Position numbers and translations under genes: made by a program. Positions 10,583-35,438 of a stretch of DNA of 64,000 nucleotides are shown in pieces (positions within the stretch are counted from its first letter, which is position 1; every line of letters starts with the position of its first letter). Origin of the DNA: Promethearchaeota archaeon (GTDB lineage: Archaea > Asgardarchaeota > Lokiarchaeia > Sigyniarchaeales > SOKP01); NCBI GenBank assembly GCA_019058445.1, contig JAHPZA010000003.1:160001-224000 (forward strand), read 5' to 3'. A model generated the notes under the pieces. It searched no databases, was not told the origin of the DNA, and worked only from the letters and a program-made list of their open reading frames with translations.

Positions 10583-10657
10583 ACTTTTTATTATTAAAAA
10601 AGCTAATTCCTTTTGTATTACAATAATTATTTAATAGTTAAATATATCTGAATAATA

Positions 10658-11371
10658 ATGTTGCAACAAACTTTTACATTGAGTAGAATTCTACAAGTTT
10701 ACGTACTTCAGCTCGGAATGGGAATGTATTTCTTGATACTTGCCATTTTAGTTCTTAAAAGAAATACCAAGAGACTAAATCTGATTTTCGCTGGATTTTT
10801 TATATTTACATTTATAGGAGCCTTATTGAATGTTATTTACGCGCCAATTACAGATATTCCAATCGCTACAGTTTTAGCTTATCTTACAGTTTATTTTGCA
10901 TATTTTGCTCAAATTTTTTTATTAGTATTTAATCTCGTGCTATTAAAATCAACCAAAATCATTGATACTAAAAAGCAGTTCATGATTATAATTGTGTACG
11001 CTGTACTACTTTCCTTCGCCTTTTTTATTCCTAATGGTTTGACGATTAGCCAAAGCAATAATTACATTCCCTATTGGAATTTACCTTACTTTTTGTACCT
11101 TGTAATCTTGTCTCTTTCGGTTACTGTTGTACCATCAATTTATACATCGATAAAAATATATAATAAATTCGAAGATGAAGAAATAAAACGCAAATGGAAA
11201 TTCTACGTTTTTGGAATTTCGACATATTTTATAGCTTATTTGGGAATTTCTGTTTGTAATTATATTAACCATCCGACAATTAGGCTCATTTGGAACTCAT
11301 TTGCGCTACTGCTTTTTATTTGCTCGTATTTTATGTATTACGGCGTTGTAAAACAATTAAAATCAGAATAA
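10658..11371 (+). CDS. Standalone seven-transmembrane protein (HisKA_7TM-like)
   Basis: About 7 hydrophobic segments, no soluble output domain; paralog of 28889..29596. Confidence 0.75.
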   Translation: MLQQTFTLSRILQVYVLQLGMGMYFLILAILVLKRNTKRLNLIFAGFFIFTFIGALLNVIYAPITDIPIATVLAYLTVYFAYFAQIFLLVFNLVLLKSTKIIDTKKQFMIIIVYAVLLSFAFFIPNGLTISQSNNYIPYWNLPYFLYLVILSLSVTVVPSIYTSIKIYNKFEDEEIKRKWKFYVFGISTYFIAYLGISVCNYINHPTIRLIWNSFALLLFICSYFMYYGVVKQLKSE

Positions 11372-22907: not shown

Positions 22908-23423
22908 TCAAATTAAGAATTGATTTGATGTACTGCAACCGCTGCAAGTATCGGACGATTTAGGGATTGATTTTCTCTCGTACAATCCAAAAAGCTCAGC
23001 ATATTCAATAATATGTTGGTTTATTATTCTTCTAAAGTTTTGATTATTTAATCCTTCTAATTTCTCAACATCTAAAGCATAAATTCTAAAAACATATTTT
23101 TGCATTCCTCCCGCAGCATTCGGACCTTCATAATTTAAAGTATAAAAATCATTTTGAACTTCTATTCCGGGGATAATCCCATCTTGTTGAATTTCATTCA
23201 CATCTAAAGGAATATTATAAACATACCAATGATATATTTCACCAACCTCTGGATCTCGGCGAGAAAAGGAAATTGCATAGCTTTTTGTTCCATCTGGAGG
23301 ATTCTCCCATCTCAAATGGGGAGAAAAATCTTCTCCATCACATGTAAACTTTTTATCCATTATCTCATTGTTTTTAAAATTATTGCTTTCAAGAATCATC
23401 ATGAAAAATAAGAAAAAGAGCAA
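22908..23423 (-). CDS. YbhB/YbcL (PEBP) family protein, divergent copy
   Basis: TCDGEDFSPHLRW, HWYVYNIP, FRIYALD; likely start ~23402. Confidence 0.85.
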   Translation of the reverse strand: MLFFLFFMMILESNNFKNNEIMDKKFTCDGEDFSPHLRWENPPDGTKSYAISFSRRDPEVGEIYHWYVYNIPLDVNEIQQDGIIPGIEVQNDFYTLNYEGPNAAGGMQKYVFRIYALDVEKLEGLNNQNFRRIINQHIIEYAELFGLYERKSIPKSSDTCSGCSTSNQFLI

Positions 23424-23438
23424 ATTTAAAGATTTCCT

Positions 23439-23867
23439 CTATGCGCTATAAAGTCCAATTAATTCCGCAGATTCTATTGTGTGTTCCTTTACTTCTTTCA
23501 TAAAGGTTTTCTTCGTAATATCCTCAAGACTTTTAACATCAAGAGCATAAATTCGAAAAAAATATCTATGTGTTCCACTGGGGGGTGCAGGACCACCATA
23601 ACCTATTTTTCCATAATCATTCTTTAATTCTGTCCCGGGAACAGGTCCTCCCTGAGAGATTTCATTAGTTTCTGCTGGAATATTGCAAACTAACCAGTGT
23701 ATCCAATCACCTACAGGTGCATCAGGGTCATTACACGATAGAGCAAAGCTTTTAGTTTGATTCGGAGCATCTTCCCACTTAAGATGAGGAGAGATATTAT
23801 CTGCGCGGAAAGAAAATTTCTTATCCATTGATTCTTTATGTTTAAAATCATTACTTATGAGTTTCAT
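23439..23867 (-). CDS. YbhB/YbcL (PEBP/Raf kinase inhibitor-like) protein
   Basis: DPDAP, HW, GYGGPAPP, HRYFF canonical motifs. Confidence 0.92.
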   Translation of the reverse strand: MKLISNDFKHKESMDKKFSFRADNISPHLKWEDAPNQTKSFALSCNDPDAPVGDWIHWLVCNIPAETNEISQGGPVPGTELKNDYGKIGYGGPAPPSGTHRYFFRIYALDVKSLEDITKKTFMKEVKEHTIESAELIGLYSA

Positions 23868-24008: not shown

Positions 24009-27000
24009 ATGATTGATAATGAAGAAGAATCATTTGAGCTCATAGAAAAATATCGAGTTATAATTGAGAATGTTAATGACCTAATTTGTATAGTTGAAAA
24101 AGATCATCCGTATAAAATTAAATTTATAAATGAAACAATATTTTTGAGCGTTTTAAATTACTCAAATGAGGATTTAATTGATAATTCAATTTTAAATTAT
24201 ATTCATCCTGAAGATCTTAAGGAATTTGAAAAGTTCTTGAAAAAGGGAACTGATGGAAAGATCGAATTACAGGAGATAAGAGTCAAGAATAAAAATAACA
24301 AATTTATCTGGTTTGAATATAAAATAAAAAAATATAAGGACTCAAACGAAAATAATAAACTTCTCATAATCTTAGAAAACCGTTCTCAGAATAAGACTTT
24401 AGAGAAAAAAATAAGTGAAAGTGAAGCTAAATTAAAAAATATAATGACCTCCTTACCTGAAATTCGGTTTTGGAAATTATTTTATCCTAAAAAGTATGAA
24501 GAAGCATTGAGAACATCATATGAAATGCTTCAAAAAGTAATAGATAACATTCCTGAAAATATCTTCTGGAAGGATACAAATTTAGTATATTTAGGATGCA
24601 ATCAAAATTACTCCAATTTTATAGGCGCTGATAATCCAGAATACGTAATTGGTGAGACGAATAGAGACCTTTTATTGGAAGATTTATTATCCACAGAAAA
24701 ACTTTTGGAATTGGAGGAAAACGAATCAAAGGTTATAACTTCAAATCAACCAGAATTTCATATTATTGAATACTGGAATTTAAAAAATGGAGAAAGATTA
24801 TGGTTTGATACAAATAGAATACCCCTTCATGATTCAGAGGGAAATGTCGCTGGAATTCTCGTGACTTATGACGATATAACAGAATTAAAGAAAGCAGAAG
24901 AAGATTTAATAGAGTCTGAAGAAAAATTTAGGACTATCAGTGAGAGAACTTCATTGGGCTTATTTATTTTACAAGATGATGTCCTTACTTACGTTAATCG
25001 AGGGGCCTCAATAAGCCTTGGATATTCTTTTTCAGAAATGAAAGAATGGAAGCCTGGAAAATATCTCCAGTTATTCTTTCCAGAAGATCGAGATTTGATT
25101 GCTAATCTTGCGAGCCAATTACAAGGAGGAATAAGGCCAGATAGAGCCAATATTCAAGTTCGGTGTATAAAAAAATCTAAGGATATAATGTGGGTAGAAT
25201 TATTTGGTCAAACTATAAATTATAGAGGTAAACAAGCTGGATTAATCTCAGCTATCGATATTACTCAAAGAAAAAAGGCAGAAGAAGATTTAATTGAGTC
25301 TGAGGAAAAATACCGCCATTTATTTGGAAACTCTCCAAATATGATATGTTTAATCGACACAAATAGAAGAATAATTGATTTAAATGCTGCATTCTTAAAA
25401 TTCTTTAATTCTAAAAAAGATGAAATGATAGGAAAAGATGTTCTCGAGGCCTATAATTTTTCTCAAAAAGAGTTGTCTTTAATTGATAAAAAATATAAGG
25501 AACTTCTCAAAAAAGGGAATATAAAACCATTCGAAATTGAATTTAAATTTGAAAATGATAGATCTGTATGGGTTAATGTTCAAGCCTCCTTTGTAGAAAC
25601 TGGAATTAAAACTCTTATAGAAATATTAATGCAAGACATCACAGATAGAAAGCGATCTGAAGAAATTTTACAACTTAATGAGGCTCGTCTTGAAGCATTA
25701 CTTAAGCTTAGTCAAATGGGAGATTTATCAGAAAAAGAGATTGCTGATTTTGCAGTAGTAAAATGTGTTGATCTCACAAATAGCAAACTTGGGTGTATCT
25801 TCTTTTTTAATGAAGAGAAATCTAATTTAAAAGTGGTTTCTTGCTCAAATCAGTTGGAAGATCAATGCAATATTAAGCAATTACAAGAATTTTCATCAAA
25901 AGAATTTAATATGTGGAATGAAATACTTATTCAGCGAAAGCCAATTGTTAATAATAATTGTACGGAAAATACAAAATTATTTATATGCATATCCAATAGA
26001 GGAGAAAGAATAATTCGGTATTTATGCATCCCTATCTTAGAGGGAGAGCATATTGTTGCGGTGACAACTGTTATTAATAAGAAAAATAATTATAATGAAT
26101 CTGATATAAATCAATTAACATTATTCATGGATGGTGTCTGGAAAAATATCCAACGTAAGAGAGCCCGAGATGCGCTAGAAAGGAGTGAGGGAAAATACCG
26201 CGATTTACTTGAGACTTCTTCAATGGGGATATTAGAATATAATTTCACTCTCAATGATTATTCATATGTTAATCCTAAATTGTTGGAAATGTTGGGCTAT
26301 GATAAAAACGATGATTTCAATGTGAAAATCTTTTCTAAAAGCATACATCCGGATGAAATAAAAAAATTTAATAGAGTTGTCGAAAAAGACCAATTAGAAT
26401 TCAGAATATATGATAAACAAGGGAATTTAAAATGGTTCCTTGGAAAACTCATTAATCAATTTGATGATGAAGGGAATAATCTTAGTTTTAGAGTATGGTT
26501 GGAAGATATCACAGAGAAAAAGATTTATGAAGAGCTTATATATGAGTTAAATATAAACTTCTTAAGTTTTACCACGGATATTCAAAAAAATATTGATATG
26601 CTAATTCAGACATGCGGTAAATTGTTAAGTGCAAGTGCTGTCCTATATGTTCACAAAAGAATCCAAGATGGAAAAGAAATTTATCAGTTAATGGATAGCA
26701 ATAAAGACGTCTTTCTCTATAATTCAGAAGAGTTTACTAAGAAGTTTTTTATTAGCACTTTGTTTGACGAAAACCATGATTATATTCAGACCCTTTTCGA
26801 TGTTCATAAATCAGATTATTCAAAAATTGACCCTTACTTAATAAAATATGAGGTAACTGGTTGTTATGGAAAATTAATTAAATCTCAAGACGAATATAAT
26901 AGTGCCATATGTGTTTTCTACAAAAAAAATCCTATTATCTCACATCAAGACAAACTAGTCTTGTTTTTAATTTGCGACGCGATTGAAATTGAACAACGTC

Positions 27001-27734
27001 GCTGGAAAGTTCAACAAGATTTAGAAGAACAGAGTAGTCTTAAGACTGAACTACTTTCAAGAACTTCACATGAATTAAAAACTCCCCTCATATCAATTAA
27101 AGGATTTACTGAACTTTTACTTACAGTGCATAAACCTAATTTAGATACCGATATGATTTCCATTTTGGAAGAAATAAAGGAGGGAAGTAGTCGATTAGAG
27201 AAATTAGTTAACTCACTCTTAGAAAGTTCACGATTAGATCAAGGCCAGTTAAAACTAAATATCACCACCGAAGATTTAACTTTCCTAATAAAATTTTGCG
27301 TTAAAGAATTGCAAGCTTTAGCAGAACTGAGAAATCAAACAATAATACTTAATGTACAGGAATATTTAACTTGCAGCTTTGATAAAGAGAGAGTTTATGA
27401 AGTATTGACTAATCTCCTGCTTAATGCGATTAAATATACCCCTCCAGGAGGAGAAATAACCATTAAATCTGAAATCAGAGAAAAATTCTATATAATATCC
27501 GTCGAAGATACGGGAATCGGGATTACTGATGATGAAAAGAGTCAGCTTTTCAAACAATTTGGAAAAATTGAGAGATATGGTAAAGGATGGGATGTAGATA
27601 TAGAAGGTTCTGGTCTTGGCTTGTATATCTCGAAAAATATTGTCAATTTACATGGCGGAAGCATTTGGGTTGAATCAGAAGGAAGGAATAAAGGTAGCAA
27701 ATTTTATTTTTCTCTTCCAATTATATCTGAATAA
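24009..27734 (+). CDS. Soluble multi-PAS/GAF sensor histidine kinase
   Basis: Several PAS repeats ending in DITxxK, a GAF region, H-box SHELKTPL, NAIKYT, DTGIG, GSGLGL. Confidence 0.93.
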   Translation: MIDNEEESFELIEKYRVIIENVNDLICIVEKDHPYKIKFINETIFLSVLNYSNEDLIDNSILNYIHPEDLKEFEKFLKKGTDGKIELQEIRVKNKNNKFIWFEYKIKKYKDSNENNKLLIILENRSQNKTLEKKISESEAKLKNIMTSLPEIRFWKLFYPKKYEEALRTSYEMLQKVIDNIPENIFWKDTNLVYLGCNQNYSNFIGADNPEYVIGETNRDLLLEDLLSTEKLLELEENESKVITSNQPEFHIIEYWNLKNGERLWFDTNRIPLHDSEGNVAGILVTYDDITELKKAEEDLIESEEKFRTISERTSLGLFILQDDVLTYVNRGASISLGYSFSEMKEWKPGKYLQLFFPEDRDLIANLASQLQGGIRPDRANIQVRCIKKSKDIMWVELFGQTINYRGKQAGLISAIDITQRKKAEEDLIESEEKYRHLFGNSPNMICLIDTNRRIIDLNAAFLKFFNSKKDEMIGKDVLEAYNFSQKELSLIDKKYKELLKKGNIKPFEIEFKFENDRSVWVNVQASFVETGIKTLIEILMQDITDRKRSEEILQLNEARLEALLKLSQMGDLSEKEIADFAVVKCVDLTNSKLGCIFFFNEEKSNLKVVSCSNQLEDQCNIKQLQEFSSKEFNMWNEILIQRKPIVNNNCTENTKLFICISNRGERIIRYLCIPILEGEHIVAVTTVINKKNNYNESDINQLTLFMDGVWKNIQRKRARDALERSEGKYRDLLETSSMGILEYNFTLNDYSYVNPKLLEMLGYDKNDDFNVKIFSKSIHPDEIKKFNRVVEKDQLEFRIYDKQGNLKWFLGKLINQFDDEGNNLSFRVWLEDITEKKIYEELIYELNINFLSFTTDIQKNIDMLIQTCGKLLSASAVLYVHKRIQDGKEIYQLMDSNKDVFLYNSEEFTKKFFISTLFDENHDYIQTLFDVHKSDYSKIDPYLIKYEVTGCYGKLIKSQDEYNSAICVFYKKNPIISHQDKLVLFLICDAIEIEQRRWKVQQDLEEQSSLKTELLSRTSHELKTPLISIKGFTELLLTVHKPNLDTDMISILEEIKEGSSRLEKLVNSLLESSRLDQGQLKLNITTEDLTFLIKFCVKELQALAELRNQTIILNVQEYLTCSFDKERVYEVLTNLLLNAIKYTPPGGEITIKSEIREKFYIISVEDTGIGITDDEKSQLFKQFGKIERYGKGWDVDIEGSGLGLYISKNIVNLHGGSIWVESEGRNKGSKFYFSLPIISE

Positions 27735-27779: not shown

Positions 27780-28844
27780 TTATTGAATTTTATATTCTAA
27801 AATTAAATGTCGTCGATCCCTAATACCTTGCATTTTTTGTGCCATAGTCGCATTTGCAATATTTTCTGATCCTACAGGCCAAGAACCATATCGCATACCC
27901 TCTTTATAGATTTTCTTTGCTCCTACACCGTACATTAGCATTGCAAGTCCAGCTCGTCGATGTTCTGGATGAACCACCCAATCATGGAAGCTAGCTGAAT
28001 TTAAGCGATTTCTTTTATCTCTAGAAAAAGGATTGGGGATAATATATCCACAAGCAACCATCTCTTTTGTAGGTTTATAAAAAACAGACCAAATGTGTGA
28101 TTCTAAGCCGAATTTGTGTATAAATTCAATATGTACTTCTGGATGAATAGGATTCATAGGAGAAATTTGAGCAGATGGAGGCATATACTTCAAATGTAGA
28201 TCAACCATTTGATTAAGCTGATCCCAGACCTCTGTTTTTGATGGATTAGTGTATTCGTAATCAGAATAGTCATAATAAGTACCATTTTTTTTTTTAATAC
28301 TGTAAGGATCAAATGGCAAAACCGGTACATTATATCGGTCTTCTTCAAATTTAACATAAAATCCATTATTAAGAAAAACTTTTTGATATATTGGGGGATT
28401 TACAGGACAGCAAATAAATAATGATTTATTACTTCCTTCGACCATAAAACCCCATCCAAATATAACTGCAGGGATATTTACTGGTCCCCTAATATAATCA
28501 TAATCGTTTTCTACAGCGTATTTTATAAGACTATTCATCAGAAAAGCAATTTTCCCTTCATCATGATCGTATGTGCCGAAAAATCCGAAAAACAGAGTTT
28601 TATTTCCTCCATCATATATGATTGTAATTCCTACAACTTTATCAATAAAATCCGTTTTATCGATAAAAATGCTATTCTTAATATTTTCTTCTAAAAGGAT
28701 TGCTTTAACATTAAAACCATTAAATGTCTTTATTATTATTTTTTTAAATTCTGGTAATATGGGAATGTTTATACCAATTTGCAGGAATTTTATAATTTCA
28801 TTTGGATTAGTCAATATCTTCATAGTAAATTGTAATTTTGTCAT
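27780..28844 (-). CDS. YghO-like tandem GNAT-fold protein
   Basis: FFGFF, RGPVN, NPPIY...GF and acyl-CoA motif VHPEHRRAGLA. Confidence 0.75.
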   Translation of the reverse strand: MTKLQFTMKILTNPNEIIKFLQIGINIPILPEFKKIIIKTFNGFNVKAILLEENIKNSIFIDKTDFIDKVVGITIIYDGGNKTLFFGFFGTYDHDEGKIAFLMNSLIKYAVENDYDYIRGPVNIPAVIFGWGFMVEGSNKSLFICCPVNPPIYQKVFLNNGFYVKFEEDRYNVPVLPFDPYSIKKKNGTYYDYSDYEYTNPSKTEVWDQLNQMVDLHLKYMPPSAQISPMNPIHPEVHIEFIHKFGLESHIWSVFYKPTKEMVACGYIIPNPFSRDKRNRLNSASFHDWVVHPEHRRAGLAMLMYGVGAKKIYKEGMRYGSWPVGSENIANATMAQKMQGIRDRRHLILEYKIQ

Positions 28845-28888
28845 AATTTTTCACGCCTCACAAAATAGAAAACTGTTAGTTAGTTGAA

Positions 28889-29596
28889 TTATATATTTTG
28901 TCCAATTCCATAATAAATTAAAAGTCCAGAAGGAATTACTAAGTTAAATACTATTAAAGCCCATACTGCTCTAAATAGAGGATCATGCCATGTATTATAT
29001 AATATTAATCCATAAAAGGCAAATAACATCCCAAAAATTCCACAGAAAAAATACTTTAGTTTCTTTTTTAGCTTAGAATCGATAAATGTCTTATACAATT
29101 TAATTGACAAAAATATGGATGGAAATGTAATAAATACTGTAAAAAAGACATAAATTATTAGGAAAAAATGCCAACTAAATAGTGGTGCCCAGTTTGTCTT
29201 TTCAGATATGATAATCCCTCCCGGATAGCTAAATATTATTAAAATAATAATCGCATAAACAACTATAATTAACACATCTTTTCTATTGGAAACACTTGAT
29301 TCTAAATAAACCAGGTTTTTAATGAAAACTATAAGAAATATAAATCCAAATAATATTAAATAAGCAGCAATAAAATACAACACATAACCTAAAATAGTAG
29401 TACTATAAAGTAAAAATATTAGATTTAATAAAAAACCCGTTGCTGGTAAAATATAGAACATACTTAAAGTTAAAGTAGTCTTATTATAGCTTCTTTTGAG
29501 AATTCTTAACGCTAAATAGTATAATAGAAGCACTAAGAAAGTATGTATAATAAGAATTAAAAAAATTCTTGACCAAATTGTATTTTGCAGTATCAA
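28889..29596 (-). CDS. Standalone seven-transmembrane protein (paralog of 10658..11371)
   Basis: About 7 TM segments; shares LA-x-x-(I/V)LKR, SIK(L/I)Y-x-x-F-x-D and terminal YYG motifs. Confidence 0.75.
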   Translation of the reverse strand: MILQNTIWSRIFLILIIHTFLVLLLYYLALRILKRSYNKTTLTLSMFYILPATGFLLNLIFLLYSTTILGYVLYFIAAYLILFGFIFLIVFIKNLVYLESSVSNRKDVLIIVVYAIIILIIFSYPGGIIISEKTNWAPLFSWHFFLIIYVFFTVFITFPSIFLSIKLYKTFIDSKLKKKLKYFFCGIFGMLFAFYGLILYNTWHDPLFRAVWALIVFNLVIPSGLLIYYGIGQNI

Positions 29597-29699
29597 GATA
29601 ATTCACAATATTTTTTTATAATAATATTAGACTTTTCAAAATATAAATAATCGCTCTTATTCCATAATTATTATAAAATTTGTATAATCAAATATAAAT

Positions 29700-30560
29700 C
29701 TATAATGGTTTCATTTTCAAATAATCATATCCAATGATTTGGGGTGCAAGAATCATTTTCTTTATTTCTAGTATTCCTGATACAATTATCTCAAAACTTA
29801 AGTAAGCGGCAGTCATATGGACGACTGGGGCAAGAGATACTAATGCAATTTTTCCTTCAATCATTCCATCAACAGCTCCTTTTTCCCTATCATAGGTTTT
29901 TCTTATATTAGGAAATTTTAATAAATAATTTAATTGAGCTATTTTGATTTCTTGTAATATACTTTTTGATTTTTGAATATCTTCAATTTTCATATTATGA
30001 GTATTTAAACCATAACAGTTTTCATAATCGATACTTTTTGATGTAAACCACCACGCGAACAAGTAGGGGATGCCCCATGACTCGATCATAGGTATAGACC
30101 TTTTCCGACACTCTCTTGAGATTAAAATAGATATAATTGGATCATCTAAAGTTAAAGCTACAATATGCGTATTTTTTAAAACTTCTATCAGATTGTCTTC
30201 AATAATTTCATAATATTTATTAATATTCAAATCAGGATTGATTTTATACAAAAAATTTTCAATTACATCTACTTTATACTCACCAATATCTTCTCTTGTG
30301 CACAGTTGTCTATTTAAATTTGATTCTGAAAATATATCATTATCACATATTACAAGATTTTCACATCCTGATCTAACTAGATTTTCAATAAGAGGTCCTC
30401 CAAGACCACCTAAACCAAACACACCCACTCTTGTTTTTTTAAGTTTTTCTTGCTCTGTAAACTTAATAATACCAATATTTCTTTTTATATGATTCCAGTA
30501 TTGGGTTGACCAATTTTTAGGAACTTTAGATTCAAACAAGTTCACATTACCAGTTTTCAT
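29700..30560 (-). CDS. ThiF/E1-family adenylyltransferase
   Basis: RNIG...EQEKL, GLGGLG, D-x-D-x-F-x-x-SNLNRQ; no C-terminal CxxC zinc pairs. Confidence 0.9.
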   Translation of the reverse strand: MKTGNVNLFESKVPKNWSTQYWNHIKRNIGIIKFTEQEKLKKTRVGVFGLGGLGGPLIENLVRSGCENLVICDNDIFSESNLNRQLCTREDIGEYKVDVIENFLYKINPDLNINKYYEIIEDNLIEVLKNTHIVALTLDDPIISILISRECRKRSIPMIESWGIPYLFAWWFTSKSIDYENCYGLNTHNMKIEDIQKSKSILQEIKIAQLNYLLKFPNIRKTYDREKGAVDGMIEGKIALVSLAPVVHMTAAYLSFEIIVSGILEIKKMILAPQIIGYDYLKMKPL

Positions 30561-30719
30561 TAGAAAGTTTTATAATTTTTTAGATTGTTAATTATGACAT
30601 GAGAGGGGTTATCATTTTAAAATAATACAAAGCTTAGTAATTTTAATTAATCCAAATTATAGTAAAATTGATATTTTTTTTTTCCACATCTTATCATTTA
30701 GGATAATTGTTATCGAATA

Positions 30720-31946
30720 TTAAGGAAACAACTCTTCTTTATAAAAATTTAAGGATTGAAGCATTTTCTCACTCTCAGGTATTAATTTTATATTTTTAAC
30801 AGCATTACCAGTAAAATAATTAAATACTATTTTATCCTCAAATACATTTAAATTTTTTTTATAATTCCAACAAGGCACGTACCCTCTAGGTCGAAATCCT
30901 TCTTGATAGAAGATTTTTTGATGAACAGGATTATAAGCAGAAACAAAACATTGAAAATAGTTAACATCCATCTTCTTTATTAGGTCCTTCACTTTTTTTA
31001 GAAAAATATTTAATTCCTCTGGTTGATTAACTTTGTATTTAGTTTTTTCAAAATGCTTACTATATGGATTATATGAAAATTTAAAATAAGAATCAGAATT
31101 TTTAATAGATATAATTATATTTTCGTATCCAAAATCTTTATTCTCAAACACAACATCAATTTTTTTTTCGAGTTCAATTAATTTTGACTTGTTAAGGTTA
31201 ATTGTAGGATTTTCAATATGAGGAACTCCCAAATTATATCTTTGATTAGAATAGGTATAGCAGTTTAAAACTTGACGAATGAGCCGAGGGTTTGCTTCAC
31301 ATCGATAATTAGTAAAAACCTCTTCATTATAAGAAGTAATCATAAAATCTGATTCTATCCTATTAAAAAATATATCTTTATTCGGAAAAAAAGCAATTGG
31401 TTTTAAACCACATAACGAAGTCGCAAATTGTGCAGTAGCATCATTTGTACGGACTTCTCCTGACCATACTAAAATTTTGTCTTTATAATAAGTCCAGAAG
31501 TAAATAAGTGAAGCAACAAATGCTTTTAATGAATCAACATTATTCTGATAAGATTTTTTTATTAAAAATCCATAGAGAATTCCTTTTTTGTTTTTAAAAT
31601 CTAGATCTGCTCCAAAACAACCAACAGTCATTTTTAGATTCGCTTTATATATGACCCAAGCGTGATTTTCATCCTTTATCATTCTGCGAACTTCTTCTTC
31701 ATCTTCCATTTTCTTATATGGATATGTTCCATGGTATACATCCCTGAAAAGTGAAGCGATTACCTCTGCATCTTCTGGCTCTGCAATTTGGAGGGTTGTT
31801 CTAATCTTTTTAGAATCACGTCTTTTTTTTAATTGAAAATCAAGTTTAAATAAATGTTGGATGTCAGAGTTTATACTATCTTCATACTGTTCTAAAAAAG
31901 CATTAATTGTAATGACTGATTTCCTGTTTATTTTTAAACTTTGCAT
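30720..31946 (-). CDS. Putative tandem GNAT-fold acyltransferase
   Basis: IAEPEDAEVIASLFRDVY-x-x-TYPY GNAT start; two G(L/F)-x-P-x-(A/G)-(F/Y)-x-P motifs. Confidence 0.65.
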   Translation of the reverse strand: MQSLKINRKSVITINAFLEQYEDSINSDIQHLFKLDFQLKKRRDSKKIRTTLQIAEPEDAEVIASLFRDVYHGTYPYKKMEDEEEVRRMIKDENHAWVIYKANLKMTVGCFGADLDFKNKKGILYGFLIKKSYQNNVDSLKAFVASLIYFWTYYKDKILVWSGEVRTNDATAQFATSLCGLKPIAFFPNKDIFFNRIESDFMITSYNEEVFTNYRCEANPRLIRQVLNCYTYSNQRYNLGVPHIENPTINLNKSKLIELEKKIDVVFENKDFGYENIIISIKNSDSYFKFSYNPYSKHFEKTKYKVNQPEELNIFLKKVKDLIKKMDVNYFQCFVSAYNPVHQKIFYQEGFRPRGYVPCWNYKKNLNVFEDKIVFNYFTGNAVKNIKLIPESEKMLQSLNFYKEELFP

Positions 31947-32371: not shown

Positions 32372-32764
32372 ATGCAAATAAATAAGCTAGAATACGAGAG
32401 AAGAGTGGATGCTGCTACTAAGTACTTAGCCAATGGTAAAAACTTCAAGGCAATAAAATTTCTCAATAAATTGTTAGATAAAGAACCCTCAAATGATGAG
32501 GCCTGGCTGTTATTAGGAATCGCAAAGCGACGAATTGAAGAATTGGATGATGCTATTAAATGTCTAAAAACGGCAACCATAATCAATAGTTCAAAAATAG
32601 AAGCATGGGGATTACTAACCATGTGTCTTATAGATAAGGGAGCCCTTAATGAGGCGGAGTCTGTTATTGAAAAGGCAGGCCGTCTAAATCCATACAATCC
32701 TAAAATCCAATTCTTTCGGGAAAATTTAGTAAGAGTTTATTCTAAGTTTGGTCCGTTTTTCTAA
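32372..32764 (+). CDS. TPR-repeat protein
   Basis: AWLLLG...A...A...P repeats. Confidence 0.85.
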   Translation: MQINKLEYERRVDAATKYLANGKNFKAIKFLNKLLDKEPSNDEAWLLLGIAKRRIEELDDAIKCLKTATIINSSKIEAWGLLTMCLIDKGALNEAESVIEKAGRLNPYNPKIQFFRENLVRVYSKFGPFF

Positions 32765-32847: not shown

Positions 32848-33120
32848 TTACTTGAAAAATTCAGGATATCTCCTCTCGATATTATTCAAAGCAGAGACTA
32901 AAGGAAAAAGCAGTTTTTCGTCGCGATATTCATTTATAGTTTCAGATAATCTGTCTAAAATTTGATTTGCAAGCTTTATATCATCTTTTGTATAATGATG
33001 GGTCTTATTTTTAAAAATTAAATCAAGTTCTTCTTCGAACCATCTCAATTTTTGCTTAAATTCTATCCTAACTTCAGTATCATCTATATTTAGATTCATA
33101 TGTCTCCTCTGAAACCTCAC
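32848..33120 (-). CDS. Hypothetical helical protein (likely start ATG 33099 after GAGGAG)
   Basis: ORF with a clear SD-like motif. Confidence 0.65.
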   Translation of the reverse strand: MRFQRRHMNLNIDDTEVRIEFKQKLRWFEEELDLIFKNKTHHYTKDDIKLANQILDRLSETINEYRDEKLLFPLVSALNNIERRYPEFFK

Positions 33121-33400: not shown

Positions 33401-33634
33401 TTGGTGGGAGCAATTACTGACGATTTAGACGAGAATTTCGAAGATATTGGAGTGGTTAAAAAATATTTTTCAAGAATCTTTACGGTTTTATCTAAGGAGG
33501 TTCGAGAAAAATTGCTGAATTTAAATCTATCAGAAAAGGTGAAAAAAATCGTAATTAAGGACTTAGCATTTCTCACAGAAGAGAAACAAAAGGAATATTT
33601 AAATGAATTAAAAAAGAAAAAAATGAATCATTAA
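33401..33634 (+). CDS. Small helical protein homologous to the C-terminal tail of 38793..42689
   Basis: Manual ungapped alignment of ~44 aa (see findings); start codon uncertain. Confidence 0.6.
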   Translation: MVGAITDDLDENFEDIGVVKKYFSRIFTVLSKEVREKLLNLNLSEKVKKIVIKDLAFLTEEKQKEYLNELKKKKMNH

Positions 33635-34904: not shown

Positions 34905-35438
34905 ATGGAAAGTGCGATTTTTAAGATATGTGTCTTTGGCGACGGAGGAGTCGGAAAAACAACATTGGTCAATAGATATCTTTCTGGTCTCTTTTCAGAA
35001 AGCACAAAAATGACCATTGGTGTCGATCTTGCCACAAAACATTTTATTTGGGAAGGTATAGATATCACACTTCAATTATGGGATTTAGGAGGGGAGGAAC
35101 GATTCAGGTTTTTTCTACCGGGTTACGCAAAAGGTTCTTTTGGTGGAATTTTCATATATGATATTACACGATGGAATAGTTTAATGAATTTAGATGAATG
35201 GTTAAACGTTTTCAAAAAAGGAGCTGAAACCGAAAGTTATGGTGTTCCAATCCTCATGGTTGGCTCAAAATTAGATCTCGAGCACAAAAGAAGTGTCAGT
35301 CCTGAAGATGCTTTTAATAAAAGTCAAAACCACGAGATTTATGATGTTATTGAATGCTCATCAAAGACAGGTTATAACGTTGATGAAATATTCGCAAATA
35401 TTACTGAAGAAATATTGTATTCTACAGGATTAATTTAA
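34905..35438 (+). CDS. Rab-like small GTPase
   Basis: G1 GDGGVGKTT, G2 TIGVD, G3 WDLGG, G4 SKLD, G5 CSSK; no CAAX. Confidence 0.95.
   Translation: MESAIFKICVFGDGGVGKTTLVNRYLSGLFSESTKMTIGVDLATKHFIWEGIDITLQLWDLGGEERFRFFLPGYAKGSFGGIFIYDITRWNSLMNLDEWLNVFKKGAETESYGVPILMVGSKLDLEHKRSVSPEDAFNKSQNHEIYDVIECSSKTGYNVDEIFANITEEILYSTGLI

Follow-up and report, generated by a model that had tools for sequence, protein, structure and literature searches.

In bacteria, an N-acyltransferase paired with a ThiF enzyme makes acyl-oxazolones, as described for OxzAB, TyzABC and TrzAS (PMC12596934; 10.1101/2020.06.11.147165; PMC10404671; PMC12856293). OxzA and TyzA, which resemble FeeM and acyl-homoserine lactone (AHL) synthases, are single-domain acyltransferases (PMC10404671); these bacterial oxazolone lipids excepted, ThiF enzymes are reported to act only on proteins, peptides or tRNA (reviewed in PMC12596934). 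Here we describe a locus of a Promethearchaeota archaeon in which a ThiF enzyme lies beside two GNAT-fold proteins and a membrane protein. The locus occupies positions 27780-31946, on the minus strand, of a 64,000-nucleotide stretch of DNA (contig JAHPZA010000003.1; hereafter the window), whose base composition is AT-rich (25-33% GC). A preliminary description had reported four co-oriented genes converging on a multi-PAS/GAF kinase and had proposed that they make and sense a small-molecule signal. The list of open reading frames (ORFs) places the four genes exactly where they had been reported, with spacers of 159, 103 and 44 bp:

30720-31946, minus strand: G408, 408 aa, tandem GNAT-fold protein common to every cassette variant
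29700-30560, minus strand: ThiF, 286 aa, stand-alone ThiF-family adenylase (PF00899)
28889-29596, minus strand: TM235, 235 aa, TTG start, approximately seven transmembrane (TM) helices
27780-28844, minus strand: G354, 354 aa, second tandem GNAT

Gene content is as had been described, except that the conserved TPR-protein and small-protein genes upstream were overlooked, as was the tandem nature of both GNAT genes. What sets the cassette apart is that a partner-less ThiF is joined by a membrane protein and two tandem GNATs, and that ThiF has been swapped in evolution for a PP-loop adenylase. We propose, with a probability of roughly 0.4, that the cassette makes an acyl-amide type product by N-acylating a small amine or carboxylate and activating it with ATP at the membrane.

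Conservation and variants of the cassette

A scan of species-representative genomes with a G408 profile identified 135 relatives, and gene maps were drawn for the 80 loci that were kept. These are labelled Promethearchaeota/Promethearchaeia, Hod-, Hermod-, Thor-, Odin- or Sifarchaeota, or "uncultured archaeon". All 140 G408 homologs in the database are from Asgard archaea. Tblastn around the ThiF orthologs found G408, G354, ThiF and TM235 together in eight related genomes, and the set is co-located, with its order permuted in both searches, in approximately 26 of the 80 loci. The cassette is real and Asgard-restricted. Neighbourhood conservation had been put forward in the preliminary description as a check, and lack of synteny elsewhere as a reason to abandon its proposal; the genes are syntenic in many Asgard genomes. 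Three types of cassette can be distinguished:

Type A (window): G408, ThiF, G354 and TM235, order permuted, with the TPR protein TPR130 and the small protein f7 upstream, usually a second small protein, f9, and the kinase
Type B: G408 with TM275, a membrane protein of 275 aa that is not homologous to TM235; a Zn-ribbon PP-loop enzyme; and a paralog of the G354 family, approximately 390 aa long
Type C: ThiF, G408 and the 390-aa G354 paralog

For counting, we used the 47 G408 loci that are flanked by 5 kb or more on each side and scored features within 6 kb of G408. A second tandem GNAT is present in 40 of the 47, and one of the two membrane proteins, TM235 or TM275, in 31. ThiF occurs in 24 loci and the PP-loop enzyme in 15; either one is found in 38 and both together in a single locus. 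The PP-loop enzyme is like WbuX and other N-acetyl-sugar amidotransferases (TIGR03573, 4.9e-35; 122 bits against a cut-off of 203), and in one type A cassette (L041) its gene sits at the position of ThiF. In the N-acetyl-sugar amidotransferase class, adenylation activates N-acyl carbonyls. The alternation of ThiF with a WbuX-like enzyme suggests that ATP-dependent activation of an N-acyl carbonyl or carboxylate is what matters. The varied contexts, the permuted order, the near-exclusive swap of mechanistically analogous ATP-dependent activating enzymes, and gene fusion all speak for two tandem GNATs, one adenylase and one membrane protein working as a unit.

The genome has a second cassette on contig 9 (C9:583000-597000), made up of paralogs of G408 and ThiF, a GNAT paralog of 390 aa, a SAM-methyltransferase-like gene and a WbuX-like PP-loop enzyme, so that PP-loop enzyme and ThiF coexist there. 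These genes are followed by one for a polytopic membrane protein of 571 aa that carries a DDAYIHM motif and for which a PDB sequence search gave no match. In 29 loci with PP-loop and type C cassettes (L052-L104; for example, L079:1-9000), a co-directional Asgard operon without Pfam families lies directly upstream of G408. It encodes a 616-aa HhH-domain protein, a 240-aa membrane protein, and proteins of 286, 1261 and 124 aa.

The tandem GNATs and their adenylase

Both G408 and G354 are predicted to contain two consecutive GNAT folds. The AlphaFold2 (AF2) model of G354, built from a 13-sequence alignment, has a mean predicted local distance difference test score (pLDDT) of 88 and a tandem GNAT fold. 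In Pfam, G354 has a sub-threshold match only, to PF00583 in its C-terminal part (E 0.0026). The model matches 2wpw in Foldseek (6e-13), and 7q3a (Z 21.5), 5kf1 (Z 19.6), 2wpw (Z 19.5) and MshD (Z 17.9) in VIA. The solved folds nearest to G354 act on small-molecule amines: glucosamine N-acetyltransferase, MshD and a clavulanate tandem GNAT. Its C-terminal domain holds a canonical coenzyme A (CoA) pyrophosphate loop, HRRAGLA (VVHPEHRRAGLA), which is kept in the alignment of type A orthologs. Because of this loop, G354 is a probable acyl-CoA-dependent N-acyltransferase.

Two other affiliations of G354 were considered. The preliminary description had called it YghO-like; general NCBIfam and Pfam scans at E up to 1 gave no match to YghO or bacterial ceramide synthase, family-specific references not being compared. 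The G354-family profile has a local match to the CoA-loop region of Candida N-myristoyltransferase (NMT; 1iyk, E 3.7e-6). We do not take G354 for a relative of NMT, since this match pairs the C-terminal domain of G354 with the N-terminal domain of NMT, and the NMT fold ranks 15th (Z 15.1). In NMT, acyl-CoA is bound by the N-terminal domain.

G408 has no Pfam or NCBIfam match. Its AF2 model, from a 36-sequence alignment, has a pLDDT of 91 and a predicted template modelling score of 0.90, with GNAT domains at residues approximately 50-215 and 260-380. Foldseek matches it to the single GNATs RimL, SpeG and RimJ (approximately 1e-7), and the top VIA-align match is the tandem GNAT MAB_4324 (7q3a; Z 12.2, root-mean-square deviation of 5.0 Å over 253 residues). 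Bacterial tandem GNAT models of the ESM Atlas superpose on it at a template modelling score of 0.78. Residues E164, R166, K190, D191, E300 and D371 line a cleft in G408. The loop of the N-domain reads YQNNVDS by eye on the model, and that of the C-domain has only three residues; on this by-eye reading, which leaves CoA binding possible, neither half appears to resemble the canonical Q/RxxGxG/A acyl-CoA site. A GNAT of this kind, lacking a CoA site, could bring to light a new type of donor for the fold. Some G408 homologs of 638-650 aa (P0088, P0091, P0099 and P0109) carry a C-terminal DUF998 domain (PF06197), a multi-TM domain, and because of this fusion we link the cassette to the membrane. 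One example lies at L072:7819-9879, where the tandem GNAT without a CoA loop is joined directly to the membrane module.

The ThiF domain (PF00899, 8e-35 in Pfam) begins at approximately residue 20 of 286. In an alignment of 31 sequences, RNxG, GxGGxG, D73, NLNRQ, K96 and D139 are invariant; there is no CxxC pair, and Cys182, in the crossover region, is not invariant. The absence of MoeB-type zinc CxxC pairs, which had been noted for the window sequence, thus extends across the alignment. The predicted ATP/Mg site is complete, and the protein has neither an N-terminal peptide-clamp domain (the RiPP recognition element, RRE) nor a nitroreductase domain. The window ThiF is 5-7 residues shorter at the C-terminus than most orthologs (…YLKMKPL rather than …MKPIxFxF, near 29700-29720), which is probably harmless. 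Sequence matches in the PDB include MccB and PaaA over the Rossmann half (E approximately 1e-10), and the best stand-alone ThiF-like match is 9EGB/9EGC/9EGD. ThiF reaches none of the NCBIfam equivalog models:

PRK08644: 96 bits, cut-off 159
PRK08223: 88 bits, cut-off 266
ThiF model: 80 bits, cut-off 275
MoeB: 74 bits, cut-off 266
UbaA: 70 bits, cut-off 450
TcdA (NF011696): 41 bits, cut-off 304
Rv1355c, TrzS-type (NF005901): 34.6 bits, cut-off 476

Seven genes of this genome encode ThiF domains. Five are canonical and MoeB/UbaA/E1-like; the cassette ThiF and its paralog on contig 9 (52% identical) form a divergent pair. Two longer relatives, for both of which PRK08223 is the best model, are a tandem ThiF-ThiF protein (P0394) and a fusion of a FeeM/PF13444 domain to ThiF (P0399). 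A maximum-likelihood tree, which is small and unrooted, has a long branch to P0399 and does not include OxzB, TyzB and TrzS, separates the Asgard cassette ThiFs, together with P0394 and P0399, from the canonical paralogs of the genome and a TcdA-like sequence (98/95). The preliminary description had named grouping with TcdA, MoeB or SAMP E1 enzymes as grounds for giving up its proposal; given this split and the model scores, all under cut-off, no such grouping is seen.

P0394 (L120:7254-9767) has 588 aa and two ThiF domains in tandem, a fused pseudo-dimer that is 39% identical to the window ThiF. Its gene is divergent from that of a 217-aa GNAT; deoxyhypusine synthase and pantoate genes nearby give the context an archaeal look. 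P0399 (526 aa) joins a FeeM/PF13444/autoinducer-synthase-like domain to a PRK08223-like ThiF on a 4.3-kb Logan contig (L121:268-4044), and 19 bp after its gene follows one for a 9-TM-GAF-HisKA-HATPase kinase (P0413); perhaps the two form a synthase-sensor pair for an acyl-amino-acid signal in bacteria. Scans of genome and metagenome contigs found no further FeeM-ThiF fusion, so that fusion plus kinase is a single case, and neither the TM235 nor the TM275 profile matches the TM region of P0413 significantly. PRK08223-like stand-alone bacterial ThiFs (Micropepsaceae) neighbour genes for a nitroreductase, an O-methyltransferase and HlyD, a context of secondary metabolism. A 361-aa gene beside them, considered as a relative of G354 and G408, is an O-methyltransferase.

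The folds, active-site motifs, conserved linkage and alternation of ThiF with the PP-loop enzyme are computed, and from them we infer every step of the chemistry as follows. G354 would N-acylate an amine, for example, an amino acid or amino sugar. ThiF, which is Cys-less and Zn-less, would adenylate the carboxylate or carbonyl of the N-acyl intermediate, to give an acyl-adenylate or a cyclized, azlactone-like species; in the sister cassettes, the WbuX-type PP-loop ATP-pyrophosphatase would take the equivalent role. G408 may bind the activated intermediate or transfer it to an acceptor, and the 7-TM protein may anchor the enzymes, or export or insert the product. The amine may be an amino acid, an amino sugar or a lipid head group. 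The preliminary description had likewise proposed an acylated, adenylation-activated metabolite. Linkage, the ThiF clade and the CoA loop of G354 agree with that part.

Several points weigh against this proposal. The suggested chemistry is read from predicted folds and genomic context. The catalytic role of G408 is a guess, because it has no recognizable donor site. The affinity of ThiF to PRK08223 is under the curated cut-off, and the tree that groups it with the fusion is the small one with the long branch described above. The acyltransferases are not FeeM/OxzA-type, and the known oxazolone end-products could not be made as such because there is no nitroreductase. ThiF is missing from the cassette in four type A loci (L029, L041, L047 and L048). 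Finally, many type A loci share extended synteny that takes in unrelated genes (Hdr-like, PEBP and aminotransferase), and some of the conservation therefore reflects phylogenetic inertia. Taken to its end, this last point would make the four genes mere neighbours, kept together by genome relatedness and with no joint function. We find that hardly credible: the core set occurs in three genomic contexts with permuted order and components replaced by analogues, some genes overlap or lie close together (G354-type and ThiF genes share 4 bp in L026 and have 18 bp between them in L015), and in some genomes G408 and a membrane domain form one fused protein.

The chemistry could also serve modification of the cell envelope, for example, of a lipid head group or of a lipid-linked or S-layer glycan, with N-acylation of an amino sugar or amino lipid, then ATP activation of its carbonyl or carboxylate to an amidine, amide or lactam, and the membrane protein handling the lipid-linked substrate. 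The alternate adenylase is closest to the N-acetyl-sugar amidotransferases WbuX, WbpG and PseA, the solved folds nearest to G354 include glucosamine N-acetyltransferases, MshD and WecD, a polytopic membrane partner recurs (with the DUF998 fusion as its most direct form), and the contig 9 cassette is flanked by the 571-aa membrane protein and the SAM-methyltransferase-like gene. However, no glycosyltransferase, flippase or nucleotide-sugar gene is recognized among the conserved neighbours, the PP-loop enzymes come without a HisH/HisF-type ammonia donor and match their family under its cut-off, and action of a ThiF on a sugar or lipid is without precedent (PMC12596934). We regard envelope modification as rather doubtful.

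Were the proposed acyl-amide product a lipid or a signal, it would be a new metabolite class for Asgard membrane or communication biology. For the archaeal lineage nearest to eukaryotes, the cassette indicates acyl-amide chemistry of an uncharacterized kind, and its four genes are a directly testable expression target.

Membrane partner, kinase and small proteins

The genes around the cassette in the window are the following:

24009-27734, plus strand: histidine kinase, 1241 aa, soluble, multi-PAS/GAF, convergent with the cassette
22908-23867, minus strand: two tandem PEBP-family genes, adjoining the kinase
32372-32764, plus strand: TPR130, 130 aa, TPR_19 at 6e-12 (Pfam)
32848-33120, minus strand: f7, small conserved protein of approximately 85 aa with a WFEEEFD...LSETIN motif
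33401-33634, plus strand: f9, conserved small protein of approximately 76 aa, flanking the cassette in 18 loci
34905-35438, plus strand: Ras-family small GTPase (PF00071, 1.9e-38), 3 kb from the cassette

A sigma-70 scan found 45 sites against a chance expectation of 41.9, with a model that is not archaeal.

TM235 has approximately seven hydrophobic helices by hydropathy and, in its alignment, few conserved polar residues. Its TTG start agrees with the ortholog N-terminus, MIxQxxxxxR. An exhaustive profile search collected 428 representatives of the family, the best 150 of which are stand-alone, unfused proteins of approximately 235 aa. The family is found in Asgard archaea, and its neighbours in ESM-feature space are Promethearchaeota clusters. 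One such cluster was auto-named "HisKA N-terminal 7TM", PF16927 is present on 10% of a cluster scoring 0.89, and 5 of 24 TM235 members have weak matches to 7TMR-DISM_7TM (best E 0.016). The DUF998 fusion domain has no hmmsearch match to the TM235 and TM275 profiles, and hhalign gives TM235 against TM275 a probability of 3%; because of these results, we treat the three as non-homologous. Approximately nine TM235 paralogs are present in the genome. One of them lies elsewhere in the window (10655-11359, plus strand) and others are on contigs C3, C6 and C8 (L108-L112); some stand in tandem among unannotated membrane-protein genes of approximately 280 aa, in contexts with HisF-like, alanine-racemase-like and methyltransferase genes.

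The kinase gene ends 45 bp from the stop codon of G354. Its product has five PAS domains, GAF_2, HisKA (PF00512, 6.6e-13) and HATPase_c (PF02518, 1.4e-25) in Pfam, and no TM segment by hydropathy. It stands beside 21 of 24 TM235-type cassettes and is absent from the other cassette types, among them all PP-loop or TM275 cassettes, and from L046, where the four core genes have none of kinase, TPR130 and f7 beside them. The two main type A arrangements differ by inversion of the block from f7 to TM235, within a conserved frame of aminotransferase, PEBP and kinase genes on one side and f9 and Hdr-like genes on the other. We therefore consider the kinase adjacency to be largely inherited and dropped it as independent evidence of linkage. 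PEBP and aminotransferase genes flank the kinase in many related genomes.

These observations bear on the idea of the preliminary description that the cassette makes a signal for which the 7-TM protein is the receptor. Here, the signal would be diffusible, and a stand-alone 7-TM receptor would relay it to the adjacent soluble PAS/GAF kinase as a split, quorum-sensing-like sensor. The frequent presence of the kinase beside TM235 would fit, as would the weak but recurrent likeness of TM235 to 7TM signalling modules and the bacterial parallel in which a FeeM-ThiF fusion precedes a 9-TM-GAF kinase. Yet the inversion within one frame explains the adjacency, L046 and the PP-loop and TM275 cassettes do without a kinase, and the other eight TM235 paralogs of the genome are not kinase-adjacent. 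No signalling-domain fusion occurs among the best 150 of the 428 TM235 representatives, conserved polar residues are few, and the bacterial parallel comes from one contig, with no second example in two scans. TM235 is, moreover, replaced by the non-homologous TM275 or by the DUF998 domain fused to G408, so that an anchor or transporter fits better than a specific receptor. With 7TMR-DISM matches no better than E 0.016, stand-alone relatives and non-homologous replacements in sister cassettes, the receptor role that had been suggested for TM235 is doubtful, and we consider the signal explanation unlikely. In a bolder version, the cassette would be a new, Asgard-specific system for ATP-driven ligation of acyl amides. 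G354 would supply an N-acyl amino compound, and CoA-independent G408 would use the acyl-adenylate or azlactone made from it by ThiF or, interchangeably, the PP-loop enzyme, in place of acyl-CoA, as a donor onto a membrane or protein acceptor, with TM235 and the kinase, where present, as split sensor of an archaeal quorum-sensing-like circuit; this we regard as a long shot.

TPR130 lies directly upstream of G408 in 27 loci, and its full-length orthologs end in an invariant C-terminal GPFF with the stop codon directly after, which is unusual for a TPR protein. The small protein f7 matches no Pfam family, occurs in 26 loci and is always paired with TPR130; the two also occur 5-9 kb from some type C cassettes. 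Another small protein, f8, is present in one type A arrangement, and membership of f9 in the system is uncertain. The kinase, TPR130 and the small conserved proteins may regulate or respond to the cassette.

These proteins, in particular TPR130 with its GPFF end or a small protein, would be the candidate substrates if the cassette modified proteins or peptides in the manner of an E1 enzyme or of RiPP (ribosomally synthesized and post-translationally modified peptide) biosynthesis, with ThiF adenylating a C-terminus and a GNAT-fold protein forming an amide or N-acylating. Proteins, peptides or tRNA are the substrates of almost all characterized ThiF enzymes (PMC12596934), the best single-domain fold matches of G408 are protein N-acetyltransferases of RimL/RimJ/Nat type, TPR130 and f7 accompany the cassette, and in PP-loop cassettes G408 directly follows the conserved operon of uncharacterized proteins. 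On the other side, Pfam scans of the neighbours from approximately 18 to 36 kb of the window detected no ThiS/MoaD/ubiquitin, E2 or JAB gene, as the preliminary description had held, and no beta-grasp or GG-ended carrier is among the scanned neighbours. ThiF lacks a peptide-clamp domain and a catalytic Cys. No small ORF in the intergenic gaps is common to more than five closely related loci among the 26 compared, a search that could miss very short or variable precursor peptides. TPR130, for its part, tracks type A G408 and not ThiF: it is kept where ThiF is missing and is absent from most ThiF-bearing type C loci. Protein or peptide modification is thus, in our judgement, quite unlikely.

Comparison with described systems

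Our literature search found no paper combining ThiF, GNAT and Asgard, or N-myristoyltransferase, Asgard and GNAT. Unlike MoeB, ThiF, UbaA and the SAMP E1 enzymes, the cassette ThiF scores under each model cut-off, has no CxxC and no beta-grasp partner gene among the scanned neighbours, and the canonical paralogs are found elsewhere in the genome. It differs likewise from TcdA, the tRNA ct6A dehydratase, in score (41 against 304 bits) and in its separation from the TcdA-like sequence in the tree.

Microcin C (MccB/MccE/MccC) and pantocin (PaaA) clusters resemble the cassette in bringing together a ThiF adenylase, a GNAT-fold protein and a membrane protein. In contrast to MccB and PaaA, the Asgard ThiF has no N-terminal RRE, no precursor ORF is conserved among the 26 loci, and the membrane protein is not a recognizable MFS or ABC exporter. 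The tandem-GNAT enzymes MAB_4324, clavulanate CBG, MshD, Eis, glucosamine N-acetyltransferase and NMT share the predicted two-domain fold with G408 and G354, and, as in MshD and Eis, the CoA loop of G354 is in the C-terminal domain only; sequence identity, however, is approximately 10% or less, and G408 has no canonical CoA loop in either half.

The TIGR03573 N-acetyl sugar amidotransferases WbuX, WbpG and PseA offer a parallel through the sister cassettes, in which a Zn-ribbon PP-loop enzyme replaces ThiF beside the same two tandem GNATs. The order of events would also be alike, with acylation followed by adenylation of the acyl carbonyl. The window cassette differs in having ThiF; HisH/HisF-like partners and sugar-nucleotide genes are likewise absent.

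Precedent for the pairing comes from OxzA/OxzB of Pseudoalteromonas rubra, TyzA/B/C, and TrzA/TrzS of Mycobacterium tuberculosis, in which a GNAT-superfamily N-acyltransferase stands beside a ThiF without a sulfur-carrier partner. TyzB, like the Asgard enzyme, is a stand-alone ThiF of approximately 300 aa, the adenylation site of the Asgard ThiF is intact, and in the tree, which samples none of OxzB, TyzB and TrzS, P0394 and P0399, the fusion of FeeM type, fall on the same side of the 98/95 split as the Asgard ThiF. The preliminary description had likened the locus to OxzA/OxzB. That likeness does not extend to the system type: a nitroreductase/FDO is fused to ThiF in OxzB and TrzS or adjacent in TyzC, whereas Pfam found none among the scanned window neighbours or the scanned conserved neighbour families, and the Asgard acyltransferases are two tandem GNATs rather than FeeM-type (PF13444/PF21926). 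Because both the nitroreductase and the FeeM-type acyltransferase are missing, we do not place the cassette within the OxzAB/Tyz systems. It further departs from them in what it adds, namely the 7-TM protein, a second tandem GNAT without a CoA loop, and TPR and small proteins, and in the alternation of its ThiF with a PP-loop enzyme.

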